Of a DNA stretch of 64,000 bases, positions 7,202 through 45,183 are shown piece after piece. The DNA comes from an uncultured virus (IMG/VR IMGVR_UViG_3300021959_000013). Its lineage: Duplodnaviria; Heunggongvirae; Uroviricota; Caudoviricetes. Both the position numbers and the translations under genes were made by a program. The notes below the pieces were generated by a model. That model was not told where the DNA came from. It was given only the letters and a program-made list of their open reading frames with translations, and did not search any database. Every line of letters begins with the position of its first letter. Position 1 is the first letter of the stretch. The stretch is taken from the IMG/VR virus record IMGVR_UViG_3300021959_000013. One strand, given 5' to 3'.

Positions 7202-8795
7202 TGAGTTTGGTTATCTAGGCAATCCGTCTGTAAAAAGAGATGGTGTTGAAACTGAATTTACAAAAGATGACATTCTAGAATATCAAAGATGTATGAGAGA
7301 CCCAGCATATTTTGCTAGGACATATATTAAAATTATAAATCTAGACGAAGGATTAGTTCCATTTAATTTATATCCTTATCAAGAAAACATGTTTAAACAT
7401 TTTAATGATAATAGATTTAGTATAGTATTAGCATGTAGACAAAGTGGTAAATCAATATCTTCAGTTGTATATCTCTTATGGTATGCAGTGTTTCATCCAG
7501 AAAAAACAATTGCAATATTAGCAAATAAAGGAGCAGTTGCAAGAGAAATGCTCGCGCGTATCACGCTAGCGTTAGAAAATTTACCATTCTTTTTACAGCC
7601 AGGATGTAAGGCTTTAAATAAAGGTAGTATAGAATTTAGTAATAATAGTAAGATAATAGCTTCAGCTACTTCTGGTAGTTCAATAAGAGGTTTATCTATT
7701 AACTTACTATTCCTTGATGAGTTTGCATTTGTAGAAAATGACGCACAATTTTATACATCAACTTATCCTGTAGTATCTGCTGGTAAAGATACTCAGATTA
7801 TTATTACATCTACAGCAAATGGAATAGGTAATATATACCATAAACTATGGGAAGGTGCAGTACAAAAAACAAATGAGTTTAAACCGTTTAGAGTAGATTG
7901 GTGGGATGTTCCAGGAAGAGATGATAAATGGAAAGAAACTACTGTATCTAATACTTCTGAGTTACAGTTCGAACAAGAGTTTGGTAATACCTTTCATGGA
8001 AGAGGCAATACATTAATTAGTGCTAATCATTTATTAGCTCAAGTAAGTGTTGACCCAGAGTTTTTTAAAGAAAACGTTTACATATATAAACAGCCAATTG
8101 AAGGCCACGAGTATGTAATGACTGTTGATGTATCTAAAGGCAGAAATCAAGATTATAGTACATTTACAATAATTGATGTAAGTGAACAGCCATTTGAACA
8201 GGTTGCAGTATTTAGAGATAACAATATATCTCCAATGCTATTGCCAGATATTATATACAAGTACGCAAATACATATAATGAAGCTTATGTAGTTGTTGAA
8301 AGTAATGACCAAGGTGGAGTTGTTTGTAATGGTTTATATTATGATTTAGAATACGAAAACATGTTTGTAGAATCAAGTATTAAAGCAAATGCTCTTGGTG
8401 CTACTATGACTCGAAGAGTTAAACGTATTGGTTGTTCAAGCATAAAAGACTTAATAGAACAAGGTAAGCTTAAAATAAATGATGCTAATACAATAGTTGA
8501 AATGAGTACCTTTGTAAGTAAAGGAAATAGTTACATGGCCCAAGCTCCAAATCATGACGATTTAATGATGAACTTAGTTCTTTTTGCTTGGTTTACTACA
8601 ACTGATGTATTTCAAGCTTTGACAAATATTGATATGAAAGATATGTTATATAGAGAAAGGTTGGCTGCAATACAAGACGATATGTTACCATTTGGTTTTC
8701 TTGAGAGTGGGAACTACGAAAAGGATAAATATACTAAAGACGATGATGGAAACATTTGGTTCGAACAAGAATGGACAGGAAATGCAAAATTTTAA
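7179..8795 (+). CDS. gp17: Terminase large subunit gp17
   Basis: Walker A RQSGKS, Walker B FLDEFAF, nuclease DVSKG and HDDLMM. Confidence 0.97.
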   Translation: MMQKLKNNEFGYLGNPSVKRDGVETEFTKDDILEYQRCMRDPAYFARTYIKIINLDEGLVPFNLYPYQENMFKHFNDNRFSIVLACRQSGKSISSVVYLLWYAVFHPEKTIAILANKGAVAREMLARITLALENLPFFLQPGCKALNKGSIEFSNNSKIIASATSGSSIRGLSINLLFLDEFAFVENDAQFYTSTYPVVSAGKDTQIIITSTANGIGNIYHKLWEGAVQKTNEFKPFRVDWWDVPGRDDKWKETTVSNTSELQFEQEFGNTFHGRGNTLISANHLLAQVSVDPEFFKENVYIYKQPIEGHEYVMTVDVSKGRNQDYSTFTIIDVSEQPFEQVAVFRDNNISPMLLPDIIYKYANTYNEAYVVVESNDQGGVVCNGLYYDLEYENMFVESSIKANALGATMTRRVKRIGCSSIKDLIEQGKLKINDANTIVEMSTFVSKGNSYMAQAPNHDDLMMNLVLFAWFTTTDVFQALTNIDMKDMLYRERLAAIQDDMLPFGFLESGNYEKDKYTKDDDGNIWFEQEWTGNAKF

Positions 8796-9957
8796 CGAAT
8801 TTACAGCTGAAAAAACAGTAATAACAGAGGAAGAGAAAAGTTATAGGTATGTATATCTATGGTACGATGACCCTGAAGACCCTGATGACCCAGAAGCTAC
8901 TGCAGATGATTTTATAAAAGAAGGAGATTCTGTAGGTTTAAAGGGATTTAAAGTTGATGTACAAGGTGCTTATTCTGATTTAGAAGATGGAGTAAGGTAT
9001 ATCTACGATGGTATGACTGATAAAAAAGAAAGAAAGTTTAGAATAGATGAAAACACACTAGTATTTGTAAGAGCTCCAGTTACTAAAAGAAAAGCTTGGT
9101 CAGACTTTTTAACTCAGTTAGAAAGAGCTGGTGTTGTATGTGTTAACACTCGTGCATGTATGGAGATAACATCTGATAAATATAGAACAAGTTTATATCT
9201 TGCTGAAGCAGAACTAGCTCAGCCTAAAACAGTTTTAGTTCATCATCCAGAAAAAGCAATACCTGCTATGGAAAGACTTGGTGCTAAATATCCAGTTATT
9301 CTTAAAACACTTACAGGTTCATTAGGCATTGGTGTTATTAAAGTAGATTCAGAAAGTTCATTGCATTCAACTGTACAGTTATTATATAAACTAGACCCAA
9401 ACATGGGTGTATTACTACAAGAAATGATTAAAGACTTTACATTTGATATACGTGCTCATGTTATCGGTGGTAAATTCCATGGAGCAATTAAAAGACCTGT
9501 AGTAGCAAAAGACTTTAGAAGTAATGTATCACTTGGTTCTAAGCCTGCTCCTATAGAGCTAACTGATTTAGAAATAGAACATGTTGAAAAAGCAGCTAAA
9601 GCTGTTGATGGATTATGGGTAGGTGTAGATATATTCCCATCTAAAGATAGAAATAAAATACCACCAATGTTTATTGAGATTAATTCAACACCAGGCACAA
9701 AAGGATATAGAAAAGCTACTGGAGAAAACCTAGCTAAAAATATCTTAATAAAATTTAAAAATAGGGATTATTGGCTCAAACCTAATACATATAAATCAAT
9801 GTTTGAAGATAAAATACAAGCAGACAGTATGGAGTTTGAGGGAGATGTTGTAAAATGGTCTAAAGACGGTATACAATATGAACATGATATAATTGGTATA
9901 TCAGATAAAAATCCTATAATAGAATATAATTCTATCGAAGTTGAGTTGCTTCGTTAG
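8782..9957 (+). CDS. RimK-like ATP-grasp ligase with capsid-targeting-like N-terminus
   Basis: DKYRTSL, YPVILKTLTGSLGIGV, LLQE, FRSNVSLG, GVDI, EINSTPG; start MQNFNEFTAE at 8782 after AGGA. Confidence 0.85.
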   Translation: MQNFNEFTAEKTVITEEEKSYRYVYLWYDDPEDPDDPEATADDFIKEGDSVGLKGFKVDVQGAYSDLEDGVRYIYDGMTDKKERKFRIDENTLVFVRAPVTKRKAWSDFLTQLERAGVVCVNTRACMEITSDKYRTSLYLAEAELAQPKTVLVHHPEKAIPAMERLGAKYPVILKTLTGSLGIGVIKVDSESSLHSTVQLLYKLDPNMGVLLQEMIKDFTFDIRAHVIGGKFHGAIKRPVVAKDFRSNVSLGSKPAPIELTDLEIEHVEKAAKAVDGLWVGVDIFPSKDRNKIPPMFIEINSTPGTKGYRKATGENLAKNILIKFKNRDYWLKPNTYKSMFEDKIQADSMEFEGDVVKWSKDGIQYEHDIIGISDKNPIIEYNSIEVELLR

Positions 9958-20509: not shown

Positions 20510-20538
20510 ATTATACCATAAAAACAGGCAAATGTAAA
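20510..20538 (-). promoter_or_regulatory. Minus-strand sigma70-type promoter (antisense)
   Basis: Reverse complement reads TTTACA-tttgcctgtttttatgg-TATAAT (17-nt spacer). Confidence 0.8.
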
Positions 20539-20584
20539 CGTTTATTTTCACTTTTTGTGAAATAAATTTAAATTAAATTATTCC

Positions 20585-20613
20585 TTTACATTTACGCCAA
20601 AGTATGGTATAAT
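20585..20613 (+). promoter_or_regulatory. Sigma70-type promoter (gp55)
   Basis: TTTACA-N17-TATAAT. Confidence 0.85.
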
Positions 20614-38448: not shown

Positions 38449-38781
38449 ATGAAAGAAAGCTTAAGAGTCCTGCAAGAATGCGCAGAACTACAAACTAAAA
38501 AATCTCAAGACTATCAAAGTTCTGAATCAACAGTAGTACAAGCAATGCATTATAGACGTGGCATTGATACGATTCATGATATTATTCTTGGTAAAATGAT
38601 GAGAGCAACTTCATTGCTTGAATCAGCTGATGACCCAAACTTCGAAAGCATTGAAGATACTTACAAAGACATGATTAACTATTGTTCTTTTGCAGTTGCT
38701 TATGCTCGTGGTAAAATGGAAGGTCAAGACCCGCAAAGAGATATGTTTAATAACAAGGTGACAAATGTATCAAGTGAATAG
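38449..38781 (+). CDS. DUF1599/nucleotide-modification-associated all-alpha protein
   Basis: KKSQDY...K..R...ESIEDT..DMINY pattern. Confidence 0.7.
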   Translation: MKESLRVLQECAELQTKKSQDYQSSESTVVQAMHYRRGIDTIHDIILGKMMRATSLLESADDPNFESIEDTYKDMINYCSFAVAYARGKMEGQDPQRDMFNNKVTNVSSE

Positions 38782-39451
38782 TACAGCAGATATTGCAGAA
38801 GTATTTAAGAAACATCTTAAAGCTGGTAACTTTGTTAAAGACAAAACTGGTGTAGATACTATAGAAGTTATTGGTGCTTCTTTTGTTGCTGATAAACCAG
38901 CAATATTTGGTACACCAAATCAAGATTATATTCAAGCCGAACTAGATTGGTATGAATCATGTTCTACTAATATAACAGATATCTATCCTGAAGGAGATAA
39001 AGAACCACCTCAAGCTTGGCAGTATACTGCTAATGTTCATGGTGAAATCAATTCTAATTATGGTCATCTTATATTCAGTAAAACATACCATAGACAATAC
39101 AATCAAGTTCTTAAAGAATTAAGCGAGGTTAATCCAGATTCTCGTAGAGCATCAATGATATATCAAAGACCAAGTATATGGCGTGAATATAAAGAAAATG
39201 GTAAGAATGATTTTATCTGTACTAATGCAGTGACTTATTATATTCGTGACGGATACTTACACGCTGCAGTTCAAATGAGAAGCAATGATGTTATGTTTGG
39301 ATATAGAAATGATTATGCTTGGCAAAGATATGTACAAGAAAAACTACAAAAAGATTTATATTTCAGTGGTGTTCATATCGAACTTGGTCATATGTATTGG
39401 CAAGTACAAAACCTTCATGTTTATGAGAGGCATTTCGATCTTGTTAAGTAA
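38765..39451 (+). CDS. dCMP hydroxymethylase (T4 gp42-like, thymidylate synthase fold)
   Basis: DSRRA, DFICTN (catalytic Cys), MRSNDVMFGYRNDYAWQ with the Asp that selects cytosine, NLHVYERHF. Confidence 0.88.
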   Translation: MYQVNSTADIAEVFKKHLKAGNFVKDKTGVDTIEVIGASFVADKPAIFGTPNQDYIQAELDWYESCSTNITDIYPEGDKEPPQAWQYTANVHGEINSNYGHLIFSKTYHRQYNQVLKELSEVNPDSRRASMIYQRPSIWREYKENGKNDFICTNAVTYYIRDGYLHAAVQMRSNDVMFGYRNDYAWQRYVQEKLQKDLYFSGVHIELGHMYWQVQNLHVYERHFDLVK

Positions 39452-39881
39452 GTGGGATAAAAGATTTCTTGATATAGCTAAATCTGTATCAACCTGGAGT
39501 AAAGACCCAAGTAGAAAAATTGGAGCTATCGCTGTAAGAAATAGAAAAATATTGTCTACAGGATATAATGGGTTTCCTAAAGGTATAGAAGATACTGAAG
39601 AAAGATACAATAAGAGAGAAATTAAGTATCAATATGTTGTACATGCTGAAATGAACTGTATATATAATGCAGCAGAAAATGGTATATCATTAAAAGATTC
39701 TACATTATACATTTATGGTTTACCAGTATGTGGAGATTGTTCATTGGGAATAATACAAGCAGGAGTATTAAGAGTTGTTGCAGTCTCTCAAGCTACTCCA
39801 GATAGATGGAAAACTGCAATAGGCAAAACAGATGAAATATTTAAAGAGGCAGGAGTAGAATATGAATTCACAGAAGTTTGA
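39423..39881 (+). CDS. dCMP deaminase (start uncertain: 39423 ATG or 39441 TTG)
   Basis: WSKDPS, GYNGFP, HAEMN, PVCGDC. Confidence 0.92.
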   Translation: MRGISILLSKWDKRFLDIAKSVSTWSKDPSRKIGAIAVRNRKILSTGYNGFPKGIEDTEERYNKREIKYQYVVHAEMNCIYNAAENGISLKDSTLYIYGLPVCGDCSLGIIQAGVLRVVAVSQATPDRWKTAIGKTDEIFKEAGVEYEFTEV

Positions 39882-40229: not shown

Positions 40230-41522
40230 ATGTCAAAAATAAAAGCCGGAATCATCGGCGTTGGAAGTTGCGCAAAATCTTTAGTAGAAGGAGTGCAATA
40301 TTATAATGAAAATCCTGAAGACAAAATAGGTCTAATGTACGAAGATATCGGAGGATATTCAGTACATGACATCGAGTTTGTTATAGGATTTGATATCGAT
40401 AAAAGGAAAGTAAATAAGAAACTAGCAAGAGCTTTAAGAGCTCAGCCTAATTGCGCTATGGACCATGTCGATAAAATTACTACTACATCAAATAGTTCAT
40501 GCGTAGATAAAGATGCAATGGTCTATTCAGCTCCAGAGATGGACGGAATAGCTCCACACATGCACGATTATCCAGATGAAGTTACGTTTGTAAATGGAGC
40601 TGTACCAGCAGAATCTTTTGAAAGGTCTGTTGAATTATTACAGTATCATGATGTAGATGTATTAATTAACTATTTGCCAGTAGGTTCAGAAGAAGCTTCT
40701 AAATACTGGATTGATGTTGCTTTAGAAGCAGGAATACATTTCGTAAATTGTATACCAACATTAATCTCAACAGAAGATGCTATGGTAACTGAACAAAGAT
40801 TCATAGATGCAGGACTAACAATTGTTGGTTCAGATATGAGGTCAGCCTGGGGAGCTTCAAGAATGTCAGAAGTTCTACAAGGTGCTATGTTAGATTCAGG
40901 TCTAATGGTAACACAACATATTCAAATGAATATGGCTGCTGGTTCTACACAAGGACAAGAGCATATAAGAACAGGAAGAACAGCAAATACTGATTTTCTT
41001 AATATGGCAAAACAATATAGATTACATAACAAACATGTATCAAAAGAAAATGTTTTAAAAGGACAGAACAGTGTAAGAGGAGAATCAACTGCAGGTATGA
41101 CATTATTTGCTGGACCATCTCTTACTGTTCAACAAAAACCAGGTGGAGATTATATCTCGTCTGATAATAAAATAGCAAACTTTGATATGGTTGCTTATGG
41201 ATTTGCAGGCGCAAGATATGAAATGTCAGCTAGACTTTCAGTTCAGGACTCTCCAAACTCTGGTGGAGTTGTTGTTTCAGCAATTAGATTTTGTAAGGTA
41301 GCTTCAGAGATGGGCATTGTAGGATATTTAAGAGGACCATCAGCATGGACTCAAAAGACTCCTCCATTACAGCTTAAAACTCAAGATGCCAAATTTGAAT
41401 GTGATGCTTTAGCTAGGAGAGTATTGACAGATATAACTACTCCTCAGCTCAAAGAAAATAGACCGAAGGCAAAAAATCTGCCTCACACCTTCCAAGATGC
41501 GAAGAACGATTATGAAAATTAA
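40230..41522 (+). CDS. ino1: Myo-inositol-1-phosphate synthase (bacterial Ino1 type)
   Basis: GVGSCAKSLVEGVQYY, DVLINYLPVGSEEA, FVNCIP, TDFLNM, DNKIA, QDSPNSGG, KTPP. Confidence 0.9.
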   Translation: MSKIKAGIIGVGSCAKSLVEGVQYYNENPEDKIGLMYEDIGGYSVHDIEFVIGFDIDKRKVNKKLARALRAQPNCAMDHVDKITTTSNSSCVDKDAMVYSAPEMDGIAPHMHDYPDEVTFVNGAVPAESFERSVELLQYHDVDVLINYLPVGSEEASKYWIDVALEAGIHFVNCIPTLISTEDAMVTEQRFIDAGLTIVGSDMRSAWGASRMSEVLQGAMLDSGLMVTQHIQMNMAAGSTQGQEHIRTGRTANTDFLNMAKQYRLHNKHVSKENVLKGQNSVRGESTAGMTLFAGPSLTVQQKPGGDYISSDNKIANFDMVAYGFAGARYEMSARLSVQDSPNSGGVVVSAIRFCKVASEMGIVGYLRGPSAWTQKTPPLQLKTQDAKFECDALARRVLTDITTPQLKENRPKAKNLPHTFQDAKNDYEN

Positions 41523-41925
41523 TTCGTTTGATATCGACGGAGTAATCTATTTTGGTGAAGGCACCACAGGCGTAAGACCCGGTAAAGATGACATCATCAT
41601 TACTGGGCGGCCTTTCACTGATAGAGAAGCTACTGTAAAAATGCTAGAGTCAAGAGGTATATACAATACTCTTTATATGAATCCTTTAAAAAGAAAATTG
41701 CCTAATCCTAATGTCACACATGGAATAAAAGATAATCCATTGTATGGAAGAAAAGCATCAGGCATCTTTAAAGGTCAAATGATTAATATGTTAAAAGACT
41801 TGGGAGTAGAAATAGAAATGCATTTTGAAGATGACCCAATTCAAATTAAAGAAATCAAAAAAAGATGTCCTAATATTTCTATTGTACATTTAAAAAGAGA
41901 TAACGAGGAACGTGTCAAGTACTAA
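41512..41925 (+). CDS. HAD-superfamily phosphatase
   Basis: FDIDGV motif I, ITGR motif II, conserved K, FEDD motif IV. Confidence 0.85.
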   Translation: MKINSFDIDGVIYFGEGTTGVRPGKDDIIITGRPFTDREATVKMLESRGIYNTLYMNPLKRKLPNPNVTHGIKDNPLYGRKASGIFKGQMINMLKDLGVEIEMHFEDDPIQIKEIKKRCPNISIVHLKRDNEERVKY

Positions 41926-42976
41926 ATATAATTACGACTGGTCGAATTACGATAAAGAACTCATGAAAGAGTTCAATTGGTTTCTATATAAAGTAAACCA
42001 AAGGTCAGCAATTCAACTTGGTTATAGCGATGAACAATACGAATCAGTAAATCGTCATGGCAAAAATGATTTTGGACTTGGAGAAGACGTAGAGTATTTT
42101 CATCCAACAATTACATTAGATGACCGTATGAGATTCATAGGTCAAGAGATTGCAAGTTTAGATACGTCAATAATGAATATTGTTGGCAATACTTTTATAT
42201 CTCATTTCTATGGAGGAAGAGGAGTTCATTTTCTTGCTTCAGGAGAAGACAATGTCTTTGTTGATTTCGATAAGATAGCTGATAATGACCAAGAGTATAT
42301 TCAATTTGTTCGTAATAATTTAGATAAAGCTATTCAAAACAAGCAACCAATTTGGGGAACAACAGAGTTGCATACATCTATTCAAACATCAGCTAGAAAC
42401 TTTTGTCGTCAAAAATACAATGACAAAGATAGAAAGTTTCATGCAGTTGATGTTTGTGAATGGGTATCTTCGTTTAGAGATACTGGATTCTTAGAAAGAA
42501 TGCAACAATGTAATCATATGTCAGAAATATATACTCTCTTAAGAGAACAACCTGGCATTGGACATTACTATGGATTTCACGGAGCTGCTTCATCATCTGT
42601 ATTACCACAAATGAAGTATCATCATGACCAAAGATTTGTTTCACCTGGACCAGGAGCAGTATATACAATACAACTTATGTGGCCAGATGCTCCAAAGAAA
42701 TTATATGATGAAGCAATATACTACATGAGAGAAAATTCAGATGAAATAGGATTAACAAAGAATGTCGTATTTCATCCTAAAGCTTTTAATATAAATAAGA
42801 AGGACGGTACAAAATTGTTTCAATACGAACAAGATTCTCTTAAATACTACGGAACTGAAGTGTTGTCATGTCAGTTTGGTGTATACCTACAGATAAGAGA
42901 AGACGAACGAGCATGCGCGCGTAGACGTGTCGCACGAGTACAGAAGACGAATAATCTTACTGAATTCTTTGAATAA
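41912..42976 (+). CDS. aGPT-Pplase/amino-acid:DNA transferase-like (HhH fold) DNA hypermodification protein
   Basis: PGIGHYYGF HhH-like hairpin, PGPGA, E.LSCQFGVY resemble clade-1 aGPT-Pplase; C-terminal NLTEFFE. Confidence 0.6.
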   Translation: MSSTKYNYDWSNYDKELMKEFNWFLYKVNQRSAIQLGYSDEQYESVNRHGKNDFGLGEDVEYFHPTITLDDRMRFIGQEIASLDTSIMNIVGNTFISHFYGGRGVHFLASGEDNVFVDFDKIADNDQEYIQFVRNNLDKAIQNKQPIWGTTELHTSIQTSARNFCRQKYNDKDRKFHAVDVCEWVSSFRDTGFLERMQQCNHMSEIYTLLREQPGIGHYYGFHGAASSSVLPQMKYHHDQRFVSPGPGAVYTIQLMWPDAPKKLYDEAIYYMRENSDEIGLTKNVVFHPKAFNINKKDGTKLFQYEQDSLKYYGTEVLSCQFGVYLQIREDERACARRRVARVQKTNNLTEFFE

Positions 42977-42981
42977 AAACG

Positions 42982-43010
42982 TTTACATTTGCGCCAAAGT
43001 ATGGTATAAT
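42982..43010 (+). promoter_or_regulatory. Sigma70-type promoter
   Basis: TTTACA-N17-TATAAT, 7 nt before ATG. Confidence 0.85.
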
Positions 43011-43017
43011 ATATCTA

Positions 43018-43998
43018 ATGAAAAATATAATTAATTGTCCATTTATTCCTATAGCCAAAAGGCCAGGCTCTCATAGAGGAGCTGCAGGAGTAATGTATGG
43101 CGATATGATAAAGGAGAAATATGGAAACTGCGATGTCAACTATGGTGGAGAAATTCAAGACCACAATGATTATGATAACCTTTGGGTCTATCACGGCACT
43201 GATTGGTCTGGTGGAATTAATATGTTTGGTGGCGTATATGGTTTTCCTTATGTTAAGAACACTGTCAACTTTTCTAAGTTCAAAGGCAGAGTCTTTTCAA
43301 TTGGAATCGACTTCCCGCCGTATCACGAAATGGTTAAATCAAAACTGGAATCAGCTAAGAAAGAGGTTCAACCGGAATGGCATGAGGTAGACCTTAAAAA
43401 TCTAGAACGCATGTACAATGAAGCCGAAAGAATTGACTATCCTAATCCAACTAATAAAATAGTTATTGGTGATAGTCATTCCATTTGCATGTATCGACCA
43501 GGTTGGACAGTAAACAGTGTTCCATTCAAAACTTTAAATGGAGCTATAAATGATGGATTTGATAAATATATTCCATTTGATTACGAAGAGATAGAATGTT
43601 ACTTTGGTAATATAGATATAAGACATCACGTAATCAGATTAGGACAAAAGATAGAAGATTTAGCTGATAGGTATATTGAAGAAGCAAATAAATATAATGC
43701 AAAGATATATGAGTTGCTTCCAATAGAAGATGTCAGTAGAAGAATACCACAATCAGGATATTATAAAGGACAACCATTTTACGGTTCTTGGTCAGAAAGA
43801 AATGATGCAAGAAATAAATTTAACGATTATATAGAGAAAGAATACGGCATCAAAAGATGGACCGGTCATCTCTTTAATAAAGAAGGTAAGCTCGATTTTA
43901 AATACATGGAGAAACCACAATCAATACATTTATCCAGAGAGTTCTATCCATATTGGAATGGAATAGAAGCAGCAGGATTAGAGGAGTTTTTTGCATGA
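43018..43998 (+). CDS. Hypothetical protein with SGNH-hydrolase-like C-terminal domain
   Basis: IGDSHS, YFGNID, SIHLS; C-terminal GLEEFFA. Confidence 0.6.
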   Translation: MKNIINCPFIPIAKRPGSHRGAAGVMYGDMIKEKYGNCDVNYGGEIQDHNDYDNLWVYHGTDWSGGINMFGGVYGFPYVKNTVNFSKFKGRVFSIGIDFPPYHEMVKSKLESAKKEVQPEWHEVDLKNLERMYNEAERIDYPNPTNKIVIGDSHSICMYRPGWTVNSVPFKTLNGAINDGFDKYIPFDYEEIECYFGNIDIRHHVIRLGQKIEDLADRYIEEANKYNAKIYELLPIEDVSRRIPQSGYYKGQPFYGSWSERNDARNKFNDYIEKEYGIKRWTGHLFNKEGKLDFKYMEKPQSIHLSREFYPYWNGIEAAGLEEFFA

Positions 43999-45182
43999 GT
44001 TATGCGAGTATAGTACCACTTATAGGTGGAGAAACAATAGCAATGGAGAATGTCTTTAAAGAGAAGCCAAAGTATTTTCTTACTTTTGACGGCTTTCAAG
44101 ATAATGAATCTCACTTAAACAATTATTACAAACATGAGGTCCCATATTTGAACCTCTCAGAGGGAGCGAGTTACACAGAAAAAGTTGATGTGATTAATAC
44201 AGTGTGCCCATGTGCGGGGCTTAGTTCCCTTAGTCCCTCTGCTTCAAGCACTAATCCAATGAACGAATGGATGTATAAATCAGCTGAATATGTACTTGGT
44301 GAAGTACAACCGAAAGTCTTTTGGGGAGAGAATGCTCCAAGGCTTGCAAGTAAGATGGGAGAACCTGTAGTAAAGAGATTACGAAAGATAGCAGAGAAGA
44401 ATGGTTATACAATGAGTATCTTTAAAACAAAATCTATATTACATGGATTAAGTCAAGTAAGAGATCGCACATTTTACTTCTTTTGGAAAGGAGACGAAGT
44501 CCCACTCTTTGAGTACATATATGAACAACCTACAACAATTGCTGATGATATAAGAGCAGTCAAAAGATGTGATAATGACCCAATGAGTCAGATACTTTGC
44601 AATGACGCTATCCCATCAGAGAATCCATACTATAAATACGTACTAGAAGTATTAGAAGGTGGAATCACGCATAAAGAGTTTCAAGATAAAATTGAAAAAA
44701 CTACTAATCCTATGGATTATATAGAAGAAAGAACAACTTATAAAGAAGTTGCAAAATGGATGAGAGAACATGGATATGATAATGTCGCAAAGAAATGTGA
44801 TAGACAATACCATAAGCTCAAGTCAGGTGGTAACATAATGAGAAAAACTACTGAGATTCCTAAAGATAAAATAGGAGCCTTTGTAGGTCATATGCCAACA
44901 TGCTTAACACATCCAGACGAAGACCGATATTTAACAGTAAGAGAAGCTTTATCGCTTATGAAGTTACCATTTAACTTTATACTGTTAAATCCTAAAAGGT
45001 CGTTGAACCACATATGTCAAAATGTACCAGTGACTACAGCTGAGCATCCTGCTCGAATGGTTCAAAAATATTTAAACAATCAGCTTGAGATGGTAGACAC
45101 AAAGTTCTTAGTTCAGGATAATAAAAAAAGAACCTATAATTTTGAAAAAAACAGTTTACAACTCACTGATTTTATGGTATAA
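43995..45182 (+). CDS. DNA cytosine-5 methyltransferase-fold protein
   Basis: CPCAGLS (IV), GENAP (VI), SQVRDRTF (VIII), RYLTVRE (IX), QNVP (X); motif I altered to SIVPLIGG; GAGGAG RBS before 43995. Confidence 0.8.
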   Translation: MSYASIVPLIGGETIAMENVFKEKPKYFLTFDGFQDNESHLNNYYKHEVPYLNLSEGASYTEKVDVINTVCPCAGLSSLSPSASSTNPMNEWMYKSAEYVLGEVQPKVFWGENAPRLASKMGEPVVKRLRKIAEKNGYTMSIFKTKSILHGLSQVRDRTFYFFWKGDEVPLFEYIYEQPTTIADDIRAVKRCDNDPMSQILCNDAIPSENPYYKYVLEVLEGGITHKEFQDKIEKTTNPMDYIEERTTYKEVAKWMREHGYDNVAKKCDRQYHKLKSGGNIMRKTTEIPKDKIGAFVGHMPTCLTHPDEDRYLTVREALSLMKLPFNFILLNPKRSLNHICQNVPVTTAEHPARMVQKYLNNQLEMVDTKFLVQDNKKRTYNFEKNSLQLTDFMV

Positions 45183-45183
45183 T
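45155..45183 (+). promoter_or_regulatory. Sigma70-type promoter (bS21/uvsX) embedded in the MTase 3' end
   Basis: TTTACA-N17-TATAAT. Confidence 0.8.

Follow-up and report, generated by a model that had tools for sequence, protein, structure and literature searches.

A virus-linked family of C5-methyltransferase-fold proteins with altered cofactor motifs, tied to dCMP hydroxymethylase and possibly acting on hydroxymethylcytosine in phage DNA

The window analysed here, a stretch of 64,000 nucleotides from an uncultured virus (IMG/VR record IMGVR_UViG_3300021959_000013), encodes a protein with the fold and the catalytic residues of cytosine C5-methyltransferases and with a rebuilt cofactor pocket. 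Judged from the aligned homologs, the altered motif I together with an altered motif X is a conserved trait of a large virus-linked family, whose genes are tied to phage dCMP hydroxymethylase. From the fold, the motifs and the gene linkage we infer the loss of SAM use, the substrate, the chemistry and its purpose: the family protein probably acts without SAM on hydroxymethylcytosine (hmC) in new phage DNA, by whatever reaction, and the most likely chemistry, proposed only tentatively, would be the stripping of unsugared hydroxymethyl groups from hmC. The fold is already known, and the family with its reaction is apparently undescribed, since neither was found in print by a search that covered few subscription papers.

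The window belongs to a T4-like phage and carries homologs of gp23, gp20, gp45, gp44, regA, the family B polymerase, uvsX and gp41. The relevant features are the following.

38449..38781, plus strand: Nmad1/DUF1599 protein, putative dCTP pyrophosphatase
38765..39451, plus strand: dCMP hydroxymethylase, T4 gp42 ortholog (E 4e-67 to 1b49, signature residues kept)
39285..39881, plus strand: dCMP-type deaminase, given as the longest reading frame (Pfam match begins at residue 56; the true start is probably later)
40230..41522, plus strand: inositol-1-phosphate-synthase-like gene of the swappable module
41497..41925, plus strand: small phosphatase-like protein of the swappable module (weak PHROG polynucleotide kinase match)
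41912..42976, plus strand: aGPT-Pplase/5-hmdU-kinase helical-domain protein of the swappable module, E316 and C320 conserved
42982..43010, plus strand: promoter-like site TTTACA-N17-TATAAT ahead of the 326-aa gene and the family gene
43018..43998, plus strand: 326-aa protein with conserved GDSH, GNID and H304 (SGNH-like by eye, no Pfam match)
43995..45182, plus strand: C5-methyltransferase-fold protein with rebuilt cofactor pocket, intact reading frame, 395 aa
44007..44030, plus strand: motif I variant SIVPLIGG (residues 5-12), in register with DLFAGIGG
44205..44213, plus strand: catalytic motif IV, C71-P72-C73 (C73 in 132 of 133 homologs)
45015..45029, plus strand: motif X variant CQNVP (residues 341-345; Q in 130 of 133)
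45155..45183, plus strand: second promoter-like copy, overlapping codons of the clamp-type tail
45162..45182, plus strand: C-terminal LTDFMV tail, resembling the polymerase tail LEDFFG

The Pfam model PF00145 covers the 43995-45182 protein from residue 59 onward only (E 2.4e-14). Its AlphaFold model, obtained with a 138-row alignment, has a pLDDT of 95.9 and superposes over residues 1-363 on M.HaeIII and M.HhaI with Z of 25.7 and 25.2, respectively (rmsd 3.0-3.3, 278-292 residues aligned), and all 50 of the 50 fold matches listed are C5-methylases or DNMT2-type enzymes. In this predicted two-domain structure the motifs PC, EN and QxRxR, described as intact in the initial annotation, are indeed present as C71-P72-C73 (motif IV), E112-N113 (motif VI) and Q154-V-R156-D-R158 (motif VIII). 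Motif I, which is FxGxGG in SAM-dependent C5 methyltransferases, reads V-P-L-I-G-G within S5-I-V-P-L-I-G-G12, and motif X, GN[SAG][VI] in those enzymes, reads C341-Q342-N343-V344 in two agreeing alignments, with C341-Q342 in place of GN; because both of these defining cofactor motifs fail, the protein is not filed here as a SAM-dependent methyltransferase. The motif register was set by joint alignment of eight family or sister proteins with six canonical enzymes, in which SIVPLIGG falls on DLFAGIGG, so that the second Gly of FxGxGG corresponds to Leu9. The motif X change was absent from the initial annotation and was found on follow-up; Gln342 occupies the site of an Asn in canonical enzymes and of Arg350 in the phage enzyme CmoX. 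In M.HhaI the sites of Leu9 and Gln342 have roles in SAM binding. The acidic ribose-binding residue of motif II falls on T30 by eye and strand register and on D32 in a MAFFT alignment; the T30 site is Ser or Thr in 130 of 133 homologs and D32, an Asp in the window protein, is kept in only 27 of 133, so neither is a conserved acid. When the family was compared by profile with Dcm alone, motifs IV-VIII were aligned and nothing else.

The search with the 43995-45182 protein returned 2554 matches (764 representatives at 50% identity). Conservation was assessed in 133 sequences, namely 131 of the 151 family sequences (20 were left out for length) and two cultured homologs. The catalytic residues are practically invariant (C73 in 132/133; E112, R156 and R158 in 133/133), and so are the altered cofactor residues: P8 and G11 occur in all 129 rows with a residue there and L9 in 126 of them, Q342 in 130/133 and N343 in 126/133. 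The altered motif I, initially noted in the single protein, proved wider than claimed, as [IV]PL[IV]GG was found in 151 of 151 loci (clusters at 90% identity), which had been fetched with patterns from motifs other than motif I. Decay of a single gene is ruled out by this family-wide invariance. N37 is kept in 124/133 homologs, position 31 is aromatic in 125/133 and D55, a probable adenine contact, is kept in 95/133; the alignment shows no conserved basic residues for a phosphate near positions 30-34.

The likeness to C5 methyltransferases (PF00145; M.HhaI, M.HaeIII, E. coli Dcm) extends in the model over the whole fold (Z about 25) and includes motifs IV, VI, VIII and IX, the motif order and the variable region between VIII and IX. 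The family differs from them in PLIGG for FxGxGG and CQNV for GN[SA]V, in the absence of a conserved acid where strand 2 ends, in a clamp-type tail, in the tie to hydroxymethylase and in its occurrence, which is limited to viral contigs and a few metagenome bins. Among 185,579 prokaryote genomes scanned only 14 family loci were detected, all metagenome bins by title; a phage-type hydroxymethylase adjoins the gene in 10 of them, one has an unparsed synthase match and three have none in view. The ESM Atlas matches to the family are PF00145-labelled viral clusters only. In a FastTree phylogeny of 28 sequences the 21 family rows formed one group adjoining phage G gp301, and, with a small outgroup, the split between family plus gp301 and six canonical enzymes had a support of 0.999 and the branch linking phage G to the canonical side 0.996. 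Tandem family pairs with 29-45% identity and all motifs intact were seen in three loci (L089:9968-12401, L090:9962-12375 and L257:10001-12423).

The premise of the initial annotation that cytosine C5 is occupied in this phage is supported by the 38765-39451 protein, which matches T4 dCMP hydroxymethylase, shares 52-55% identity with T-even gp42 and keeps Asp143, Cys146, Asp169 and Asp177 (ThyA numbering), the hydroxymethylase signature at positions 143, 146, 169 and 177 as set out in section 28 of PMC13326640. A 5-hydroxy-dCMP synthase identity was rejected, the diagnostic Asn at 169 being absent. On these genes the phage would make hmdCMP and its new DNA would carry hmC. With the T-even hmC pathway (gp42, gp56, alpha- and beta-glucosyltransferases) the window shares the gp42 ortholog and the slot beside polymerase and uvsX, whereas T-even phages are without the family gene. 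The Nmad1/DUF1599 gene is replaced in relatives by a dATP/dGTP diphosphohydrolase-family gene.

The linkage was evaluated in the window together with 364 loci, 365 sequences that form 76 clusters at 70%, and a synthase is present within the locus in 53 of the 76 clusters. The hydroxymethylase signature was carried by 165 of 170 synthase matches near the family gene, the other five being three canonical second copies, one partial match and one S-TIM61 enzyme, as scored with a profile that was built from these same neighbours and is therefore less sensitive to canonical synthases. When 13 records from clusters with no synthase in view were searched in full, six proved to have the signature and one an edge fragment; in G007 (30% complete) the sole synthase was a canonical one, and five records (9-22% complete) gave no match. 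All nine records that are at least 90% complete have the signature, and seven of the nine encode a separate dTMP synthase (one of them by score only; the ThyX search covered seven of the nine), which makes hydroxymethylase plus deaminase as a dTMP route only an unlikely explanation. In the reverse direction, the family gene is present in 24 of 27 hydroxymethylase-anchored loci that extend at least 8 kb downstream (31 of 62 unfiltered). Among cultured phages a gp42-like gene was present in 782 records and the family gene, by a tblastn search that missed phage G, in 6; at large scale the link is one-way, and hmC phages do not need the family gene. Near the hydroxymethylase some loci show further genes. 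A SIS isomerase, a ribulose-phosphate epimerase and a nucleotidyltransferase-kinase adjoin an Asp169 hydroxymethylase in L259, L257, L316 and L162, where hmC, and not 5-hydroxycytosine, may be the base that receives a pentose. In 13 clusters (L347:7586-7960 and relatives) the gene after the deaminase encodes 125 aa and weakly matches uracil-DNA-glycosylase (E 0.004).

Between the hydroxymethylase and the family gene lies a swappable module, and in the window the stop of its last, 326-aa gene overlaps the start of the family gene. In 82 loci with the whole interval the inositol kit was found in 17, glycosyltransferase-labelled genes in 60 and neither in 5; of these labels, those of AGT (PF11440) and TAGT (PF20691) are secure, those of the 420-, 483- and 368-aa families are weak, with Pfam scores below cut-off, and a 370-aa family that adjoins UDP-galactopyranose mutase is only putatively a glycosyltransferase. 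Overall the kit occurs in 26 of 151 loci, close relatives of the window protein (L032, 86% identity; L051, 77%) have non-inositol modules, and the smallest loci consist of hydroxymethylase, deaminase, TAGT and the family gene. Since the sugar module varies, the substrate of the family protein must, on this comparison of loci, be common to all, that is, C or hmC and not a sugar or inositol. According to these data the earlier idea of a repurposed hmC-derivatising enzyme survives in part: the favoured reading is that the protein works on hmC DNA, given the rebuilt cofactor half and the hydroxymethylase linkage, while coupling of inositol by the 43995-45182 protein is unsupported and, the kit being present in only 17 of 82 intervals and the 86% and 77% relatives carrying other modules, was set aside as very unlikely. 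For any inositol transfer the 41912-42976 protein would be the better candidate, as its E316 and C320 are kept in at least 90% of 28 homologs and amino-acid:DNA transferases use a Cys/Glu pair (PMC8989533). Those transferases are like the proposed activity in that, without help from SAM, a Cys attacks a 5-hydroxymethylated pyrimidine of DNA at C6; they have an unrelated fold, act on phosphorylated hmU and are resembled by the 41912-42976 protein, not by the 43995-45182 protein. The four-gene inositol kit (40230-43998) replaces glycosyltransferases also in the distant loci L114, L118, L123, L127, L128 and L132, and its gene content points to a putative inositol-bearing base.

Several cultured phages carry the family gene or its sister. 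In XG4 one cluster contains hydroxymethylase, phosphatase, nucleotidyltransferase-kinase, two GT-like genes and the family gene. S-TIM61 encodes the family gene together with a deaminase, an alpha-glucosyltransferase, ThyX and a synthase annotated as ThyA (L001:5772-6605) in which Asp replaces Asn177 and residue 143 is Cys; this enzyme, encoded alongside ThyX, probably modifies dCMP. The S-TIM5 synthase is identical to it, and with Cys rather than Asp at the hydroxymethylase-marking position the enzyme may make 5-methyl-dCMP. Bacillus phage G gp301, annotated as a DNA cytosine methyltransferase, is the best viral structure match (TM 0.76; profile match E 2e-45), has Gln in motif X and is the sister protein in the small tree; it differs from the family PLIGG and CQNV in its own motif I AFIFGGS and motif X AQGV, and appears by eye to keep Glu at the motif II acid. 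It is encoded 13 kb from an Asp-type hydroxymethylase, and the interval L463:14304-29495 (gp301-gp319) includes two alpha-glucosyltransferases, a deaminase and this hydroxymethylase, which carries a thymidylate synthase annotation; together they would make up a full hmC-glucosylation kit. The set of Asp-type synthase, deaminase, glucosyltransferase and family gene recurs in the unrelated S-TIM61, and in phage G with the sister protein.

The S-TIM5 cytosines that follow purines are reportedly all methylated, and a pattern so strictly tied to context requires that some step act on DNA. The reported pattern cuts both ways and supports eraser and methylation alike: writing of 5mC at R-C would leave the Asp177 synthase and the glucosyltransferase unexplained, and the alternative is DNA built with hmC that is cleared where no sugar was added. 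R-C depletion as a methylation footprint was found neither in the window nor in S-TIM61 (GC 1.12 and 1.06, AC 0.90 and 0.87, respectively) and is uninformative.

The C-terminal tail pattern is common in the family (104 of 154 proteins) and in polymerases (37 of 50) and rare among other reading frames (33 of 1992), and by this resemblance LTDFMV is a probable sliding-clamp-binding peptide. Promoter-like sites, defined by a pattern drawn from three of them, number 13 in the window (18097-62534) where 0.02 are expected, and precede the polymerase, clamp and Nmad1-hydroxymethylase genes and the 326-aa gene; the bases at 45155-45183 may serve both as such a site and as tail codons. The clamp-type tail and the promoter placement fit a putative action on the phage's own new DNA. 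Most of the promoter-like copies fit TTTACA-N11-TATGGTATAAT and stand before replication and modification genes, and two copies at 20510-20613 diverge, pointing apart. A phage-encoded ribosomal protein S21 (PF01165, 45213-45479) directly follows the family gene, and a RimK-like ATP-grasp gene (8692-9957) lies between terminase and tail sheath.

A scheme consistent with these observations would start from an hmdCMP pool, from which hmC would enter new DNA, part of it then being decorated by the swappable module. The family protein would ride the sliding clamp, flip a C-type base (E112, R156, R158) and add C73 to C6 of the flipped base, like all C5-methylases, while the substitutions in its cofactor site (Gly to Leu9, Ala to Pro8, Asn to Gln342) would prevent the customary binding of SAM. 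Canonical C5-methylases can release the hydroxymethyl group of hmC as formaldehyde via the catalytic Cys, as described in PMC11347137, and by analogy kept catalysis, a closed SAM site and a Gln beside C5 is how a dedicated eraser would be expected to look. An all-hmC nucleotide pool and an eraser could together give a patterned genome of sugar-hmC and plain C, and the reported purine-context "methylation" of S-TIM5 could then be glucosyl-hmC left by the eraser, not 5mC.

Removal of the hydroxymethyl group is favoured by the fixation of motifs I and X in a new state family-wide with invariant catalytic residues, by hydroxymethylase linkage in both directions (165/170, 9/9 and 24/27), by the separate dTMP synthases of 7/9 near-complete records, with which the hydroxymethylase is not merely a thymine route, and by the comparable hmC kits of the unrelated cultured phages S-TIM61, XG4 and, with its sister protein, phage G; with an hmC pool, the bare C after pyrimidines reported for S-TIM5 would also require an eraser. 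However, D55 (95/133) and the aromatic residue 31 (125/133) fit an adenine-bearing cofactor that still binds, the motif II acid may be D32, a position where the phage G sister seems to retain Glu, the S-TIM synthase product may be 5-methyl-dCMP, which eraser chemistry could not remove, methylation explains the reported S-TIM5 pattern as simply, the 782 gp42-like cultured records against 6 with the family gene make the protein dispensable for hmC phages, and G007 (30% complete) shows a canonical synthase only. The doubtful but serious alternative, raised already in the initial annotation as methylation of residual C, is a working methyltransferase with an unusual site for SAM or a SAM analogue, which would methylate C that escaped hydroxymethylation, perhaps in R-C context. 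It agrees with the family gene being the sole PF00145 match in five of five genomes (S-TIM61, XG4 and three near-complete records), with the reported methylation of S-TIM5 at every C after a purine, with the partly retained probable adenine contacts and with the two divergent tandem copies of three loci (29-45% identity), which suggest sequence specificity; in addition, phage C5-methylases often favour GpC, as stated in PMC8256090. The C5-MT/TET/GT system of that source was also checked, and a TET/JBP dioxygenase was matched in none of 5 records, where the control was also matchless. CmoX of Synechococcus phage S-B43 (PDB 8YF3), the best single-sequence PDB match although a weak one (E 0.052), is likewise a phage protein of C5-methylase fold; one residue of its motif X is changed, its chemistry is unusual, and it shows that a motif X change can accompany a SAM analogue. 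It acts on plain C with carboxy-SAM (PMC12783734), has its own motif I, TFAGGGG, and Arg350 where the family has Gln342; the CmoX SPPC motif and motif X Arg are absent from the window protein, which has VCPC and Gln342. Methylation leaves unexplained the tie to Asp-type synthases and the fixation of both the motif I Gly and the motif X Asn as larger residues, the S-TIM61 alpha-glucosyltransferase and ThyX suit hmC DNA better than plain 5mC, and no SAM-analogue synthase, CmoA included, was among the 62 common neighbour families (family representatives) scanned.

Other reactions of the kept catalytic half are less probable. The protein might, though this is unlikely, cap bare hmC as a transferase, dehydrating it to an exocyclic methylene and adding a common small nucleophile (amino acid, thiol or amine) seated in the old methionine sub-site; M.HhaI couples thiols to hmC, and the new polar invariants N37, D/E38, Q342 and N343 could hold a small ligand. 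Amino-acid:DNA transferases use such chemistry on hmU (PMC8989533). Against capping, no ligand-supplying gene travels with the family, its inositol version has the kit in only 17/82 intervals and 26/151 loci, and the reported bare C after pyrimidines in S-TIM5 would be left unexplained. Still more improbable is one-carbon or redox chemistry on DNA, in which the protein, holding a nicotinamide cofactor in its Rossmann site, would write hydroxymethyl onto residual C from formaldehyde or methylene-THF, reduce hmC to 5mC or oxidise hmC. The Rossmann site with a non-acidic strand 2 end and kept adenine contacts could take another cofactor, and hmC writing would feed any sugar module; but conserved basic phosphate-binding residues near positions 30-34 are lacking, the fold matches listed (50/50) are C5-methylases or DNMT2-type enzymes, and an enzyme writing hmC on DNA would make the nucleotide-level one unnecessary. 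A non-catalytic helper that binds hmC DNA or flips bases would account for the clamp-type tail and the loss of canonical cofactor motifs, and is highly improbable in view of C73 in 132/133 and E112, R156 and R158 in 133/133 homologs.

In summary, this family accounts for thousands of environmental phage proteins that are annotated as cytosine methylases (2554 matches; 764 representatives), and if it does not methylate, those annotations and the methylomes predicted from them are wrong. The three cultured carriers (S-TIM5, XG4 and phage G) make the question of the reaction cheap to settle. An enzyme that removes or caps hmC would be useful for 5hmC sequencing and editing. It is conceivable, though far from assured, that these proteins are natural and widespread DNA dehydroxymethylases, derived from C5-methylases and tethered to the clamp, which would break the C-C bond of hmC in new DNA; if true, one-step removal or capping of hmC on DNA would be a new reaction in phage-host conflict.
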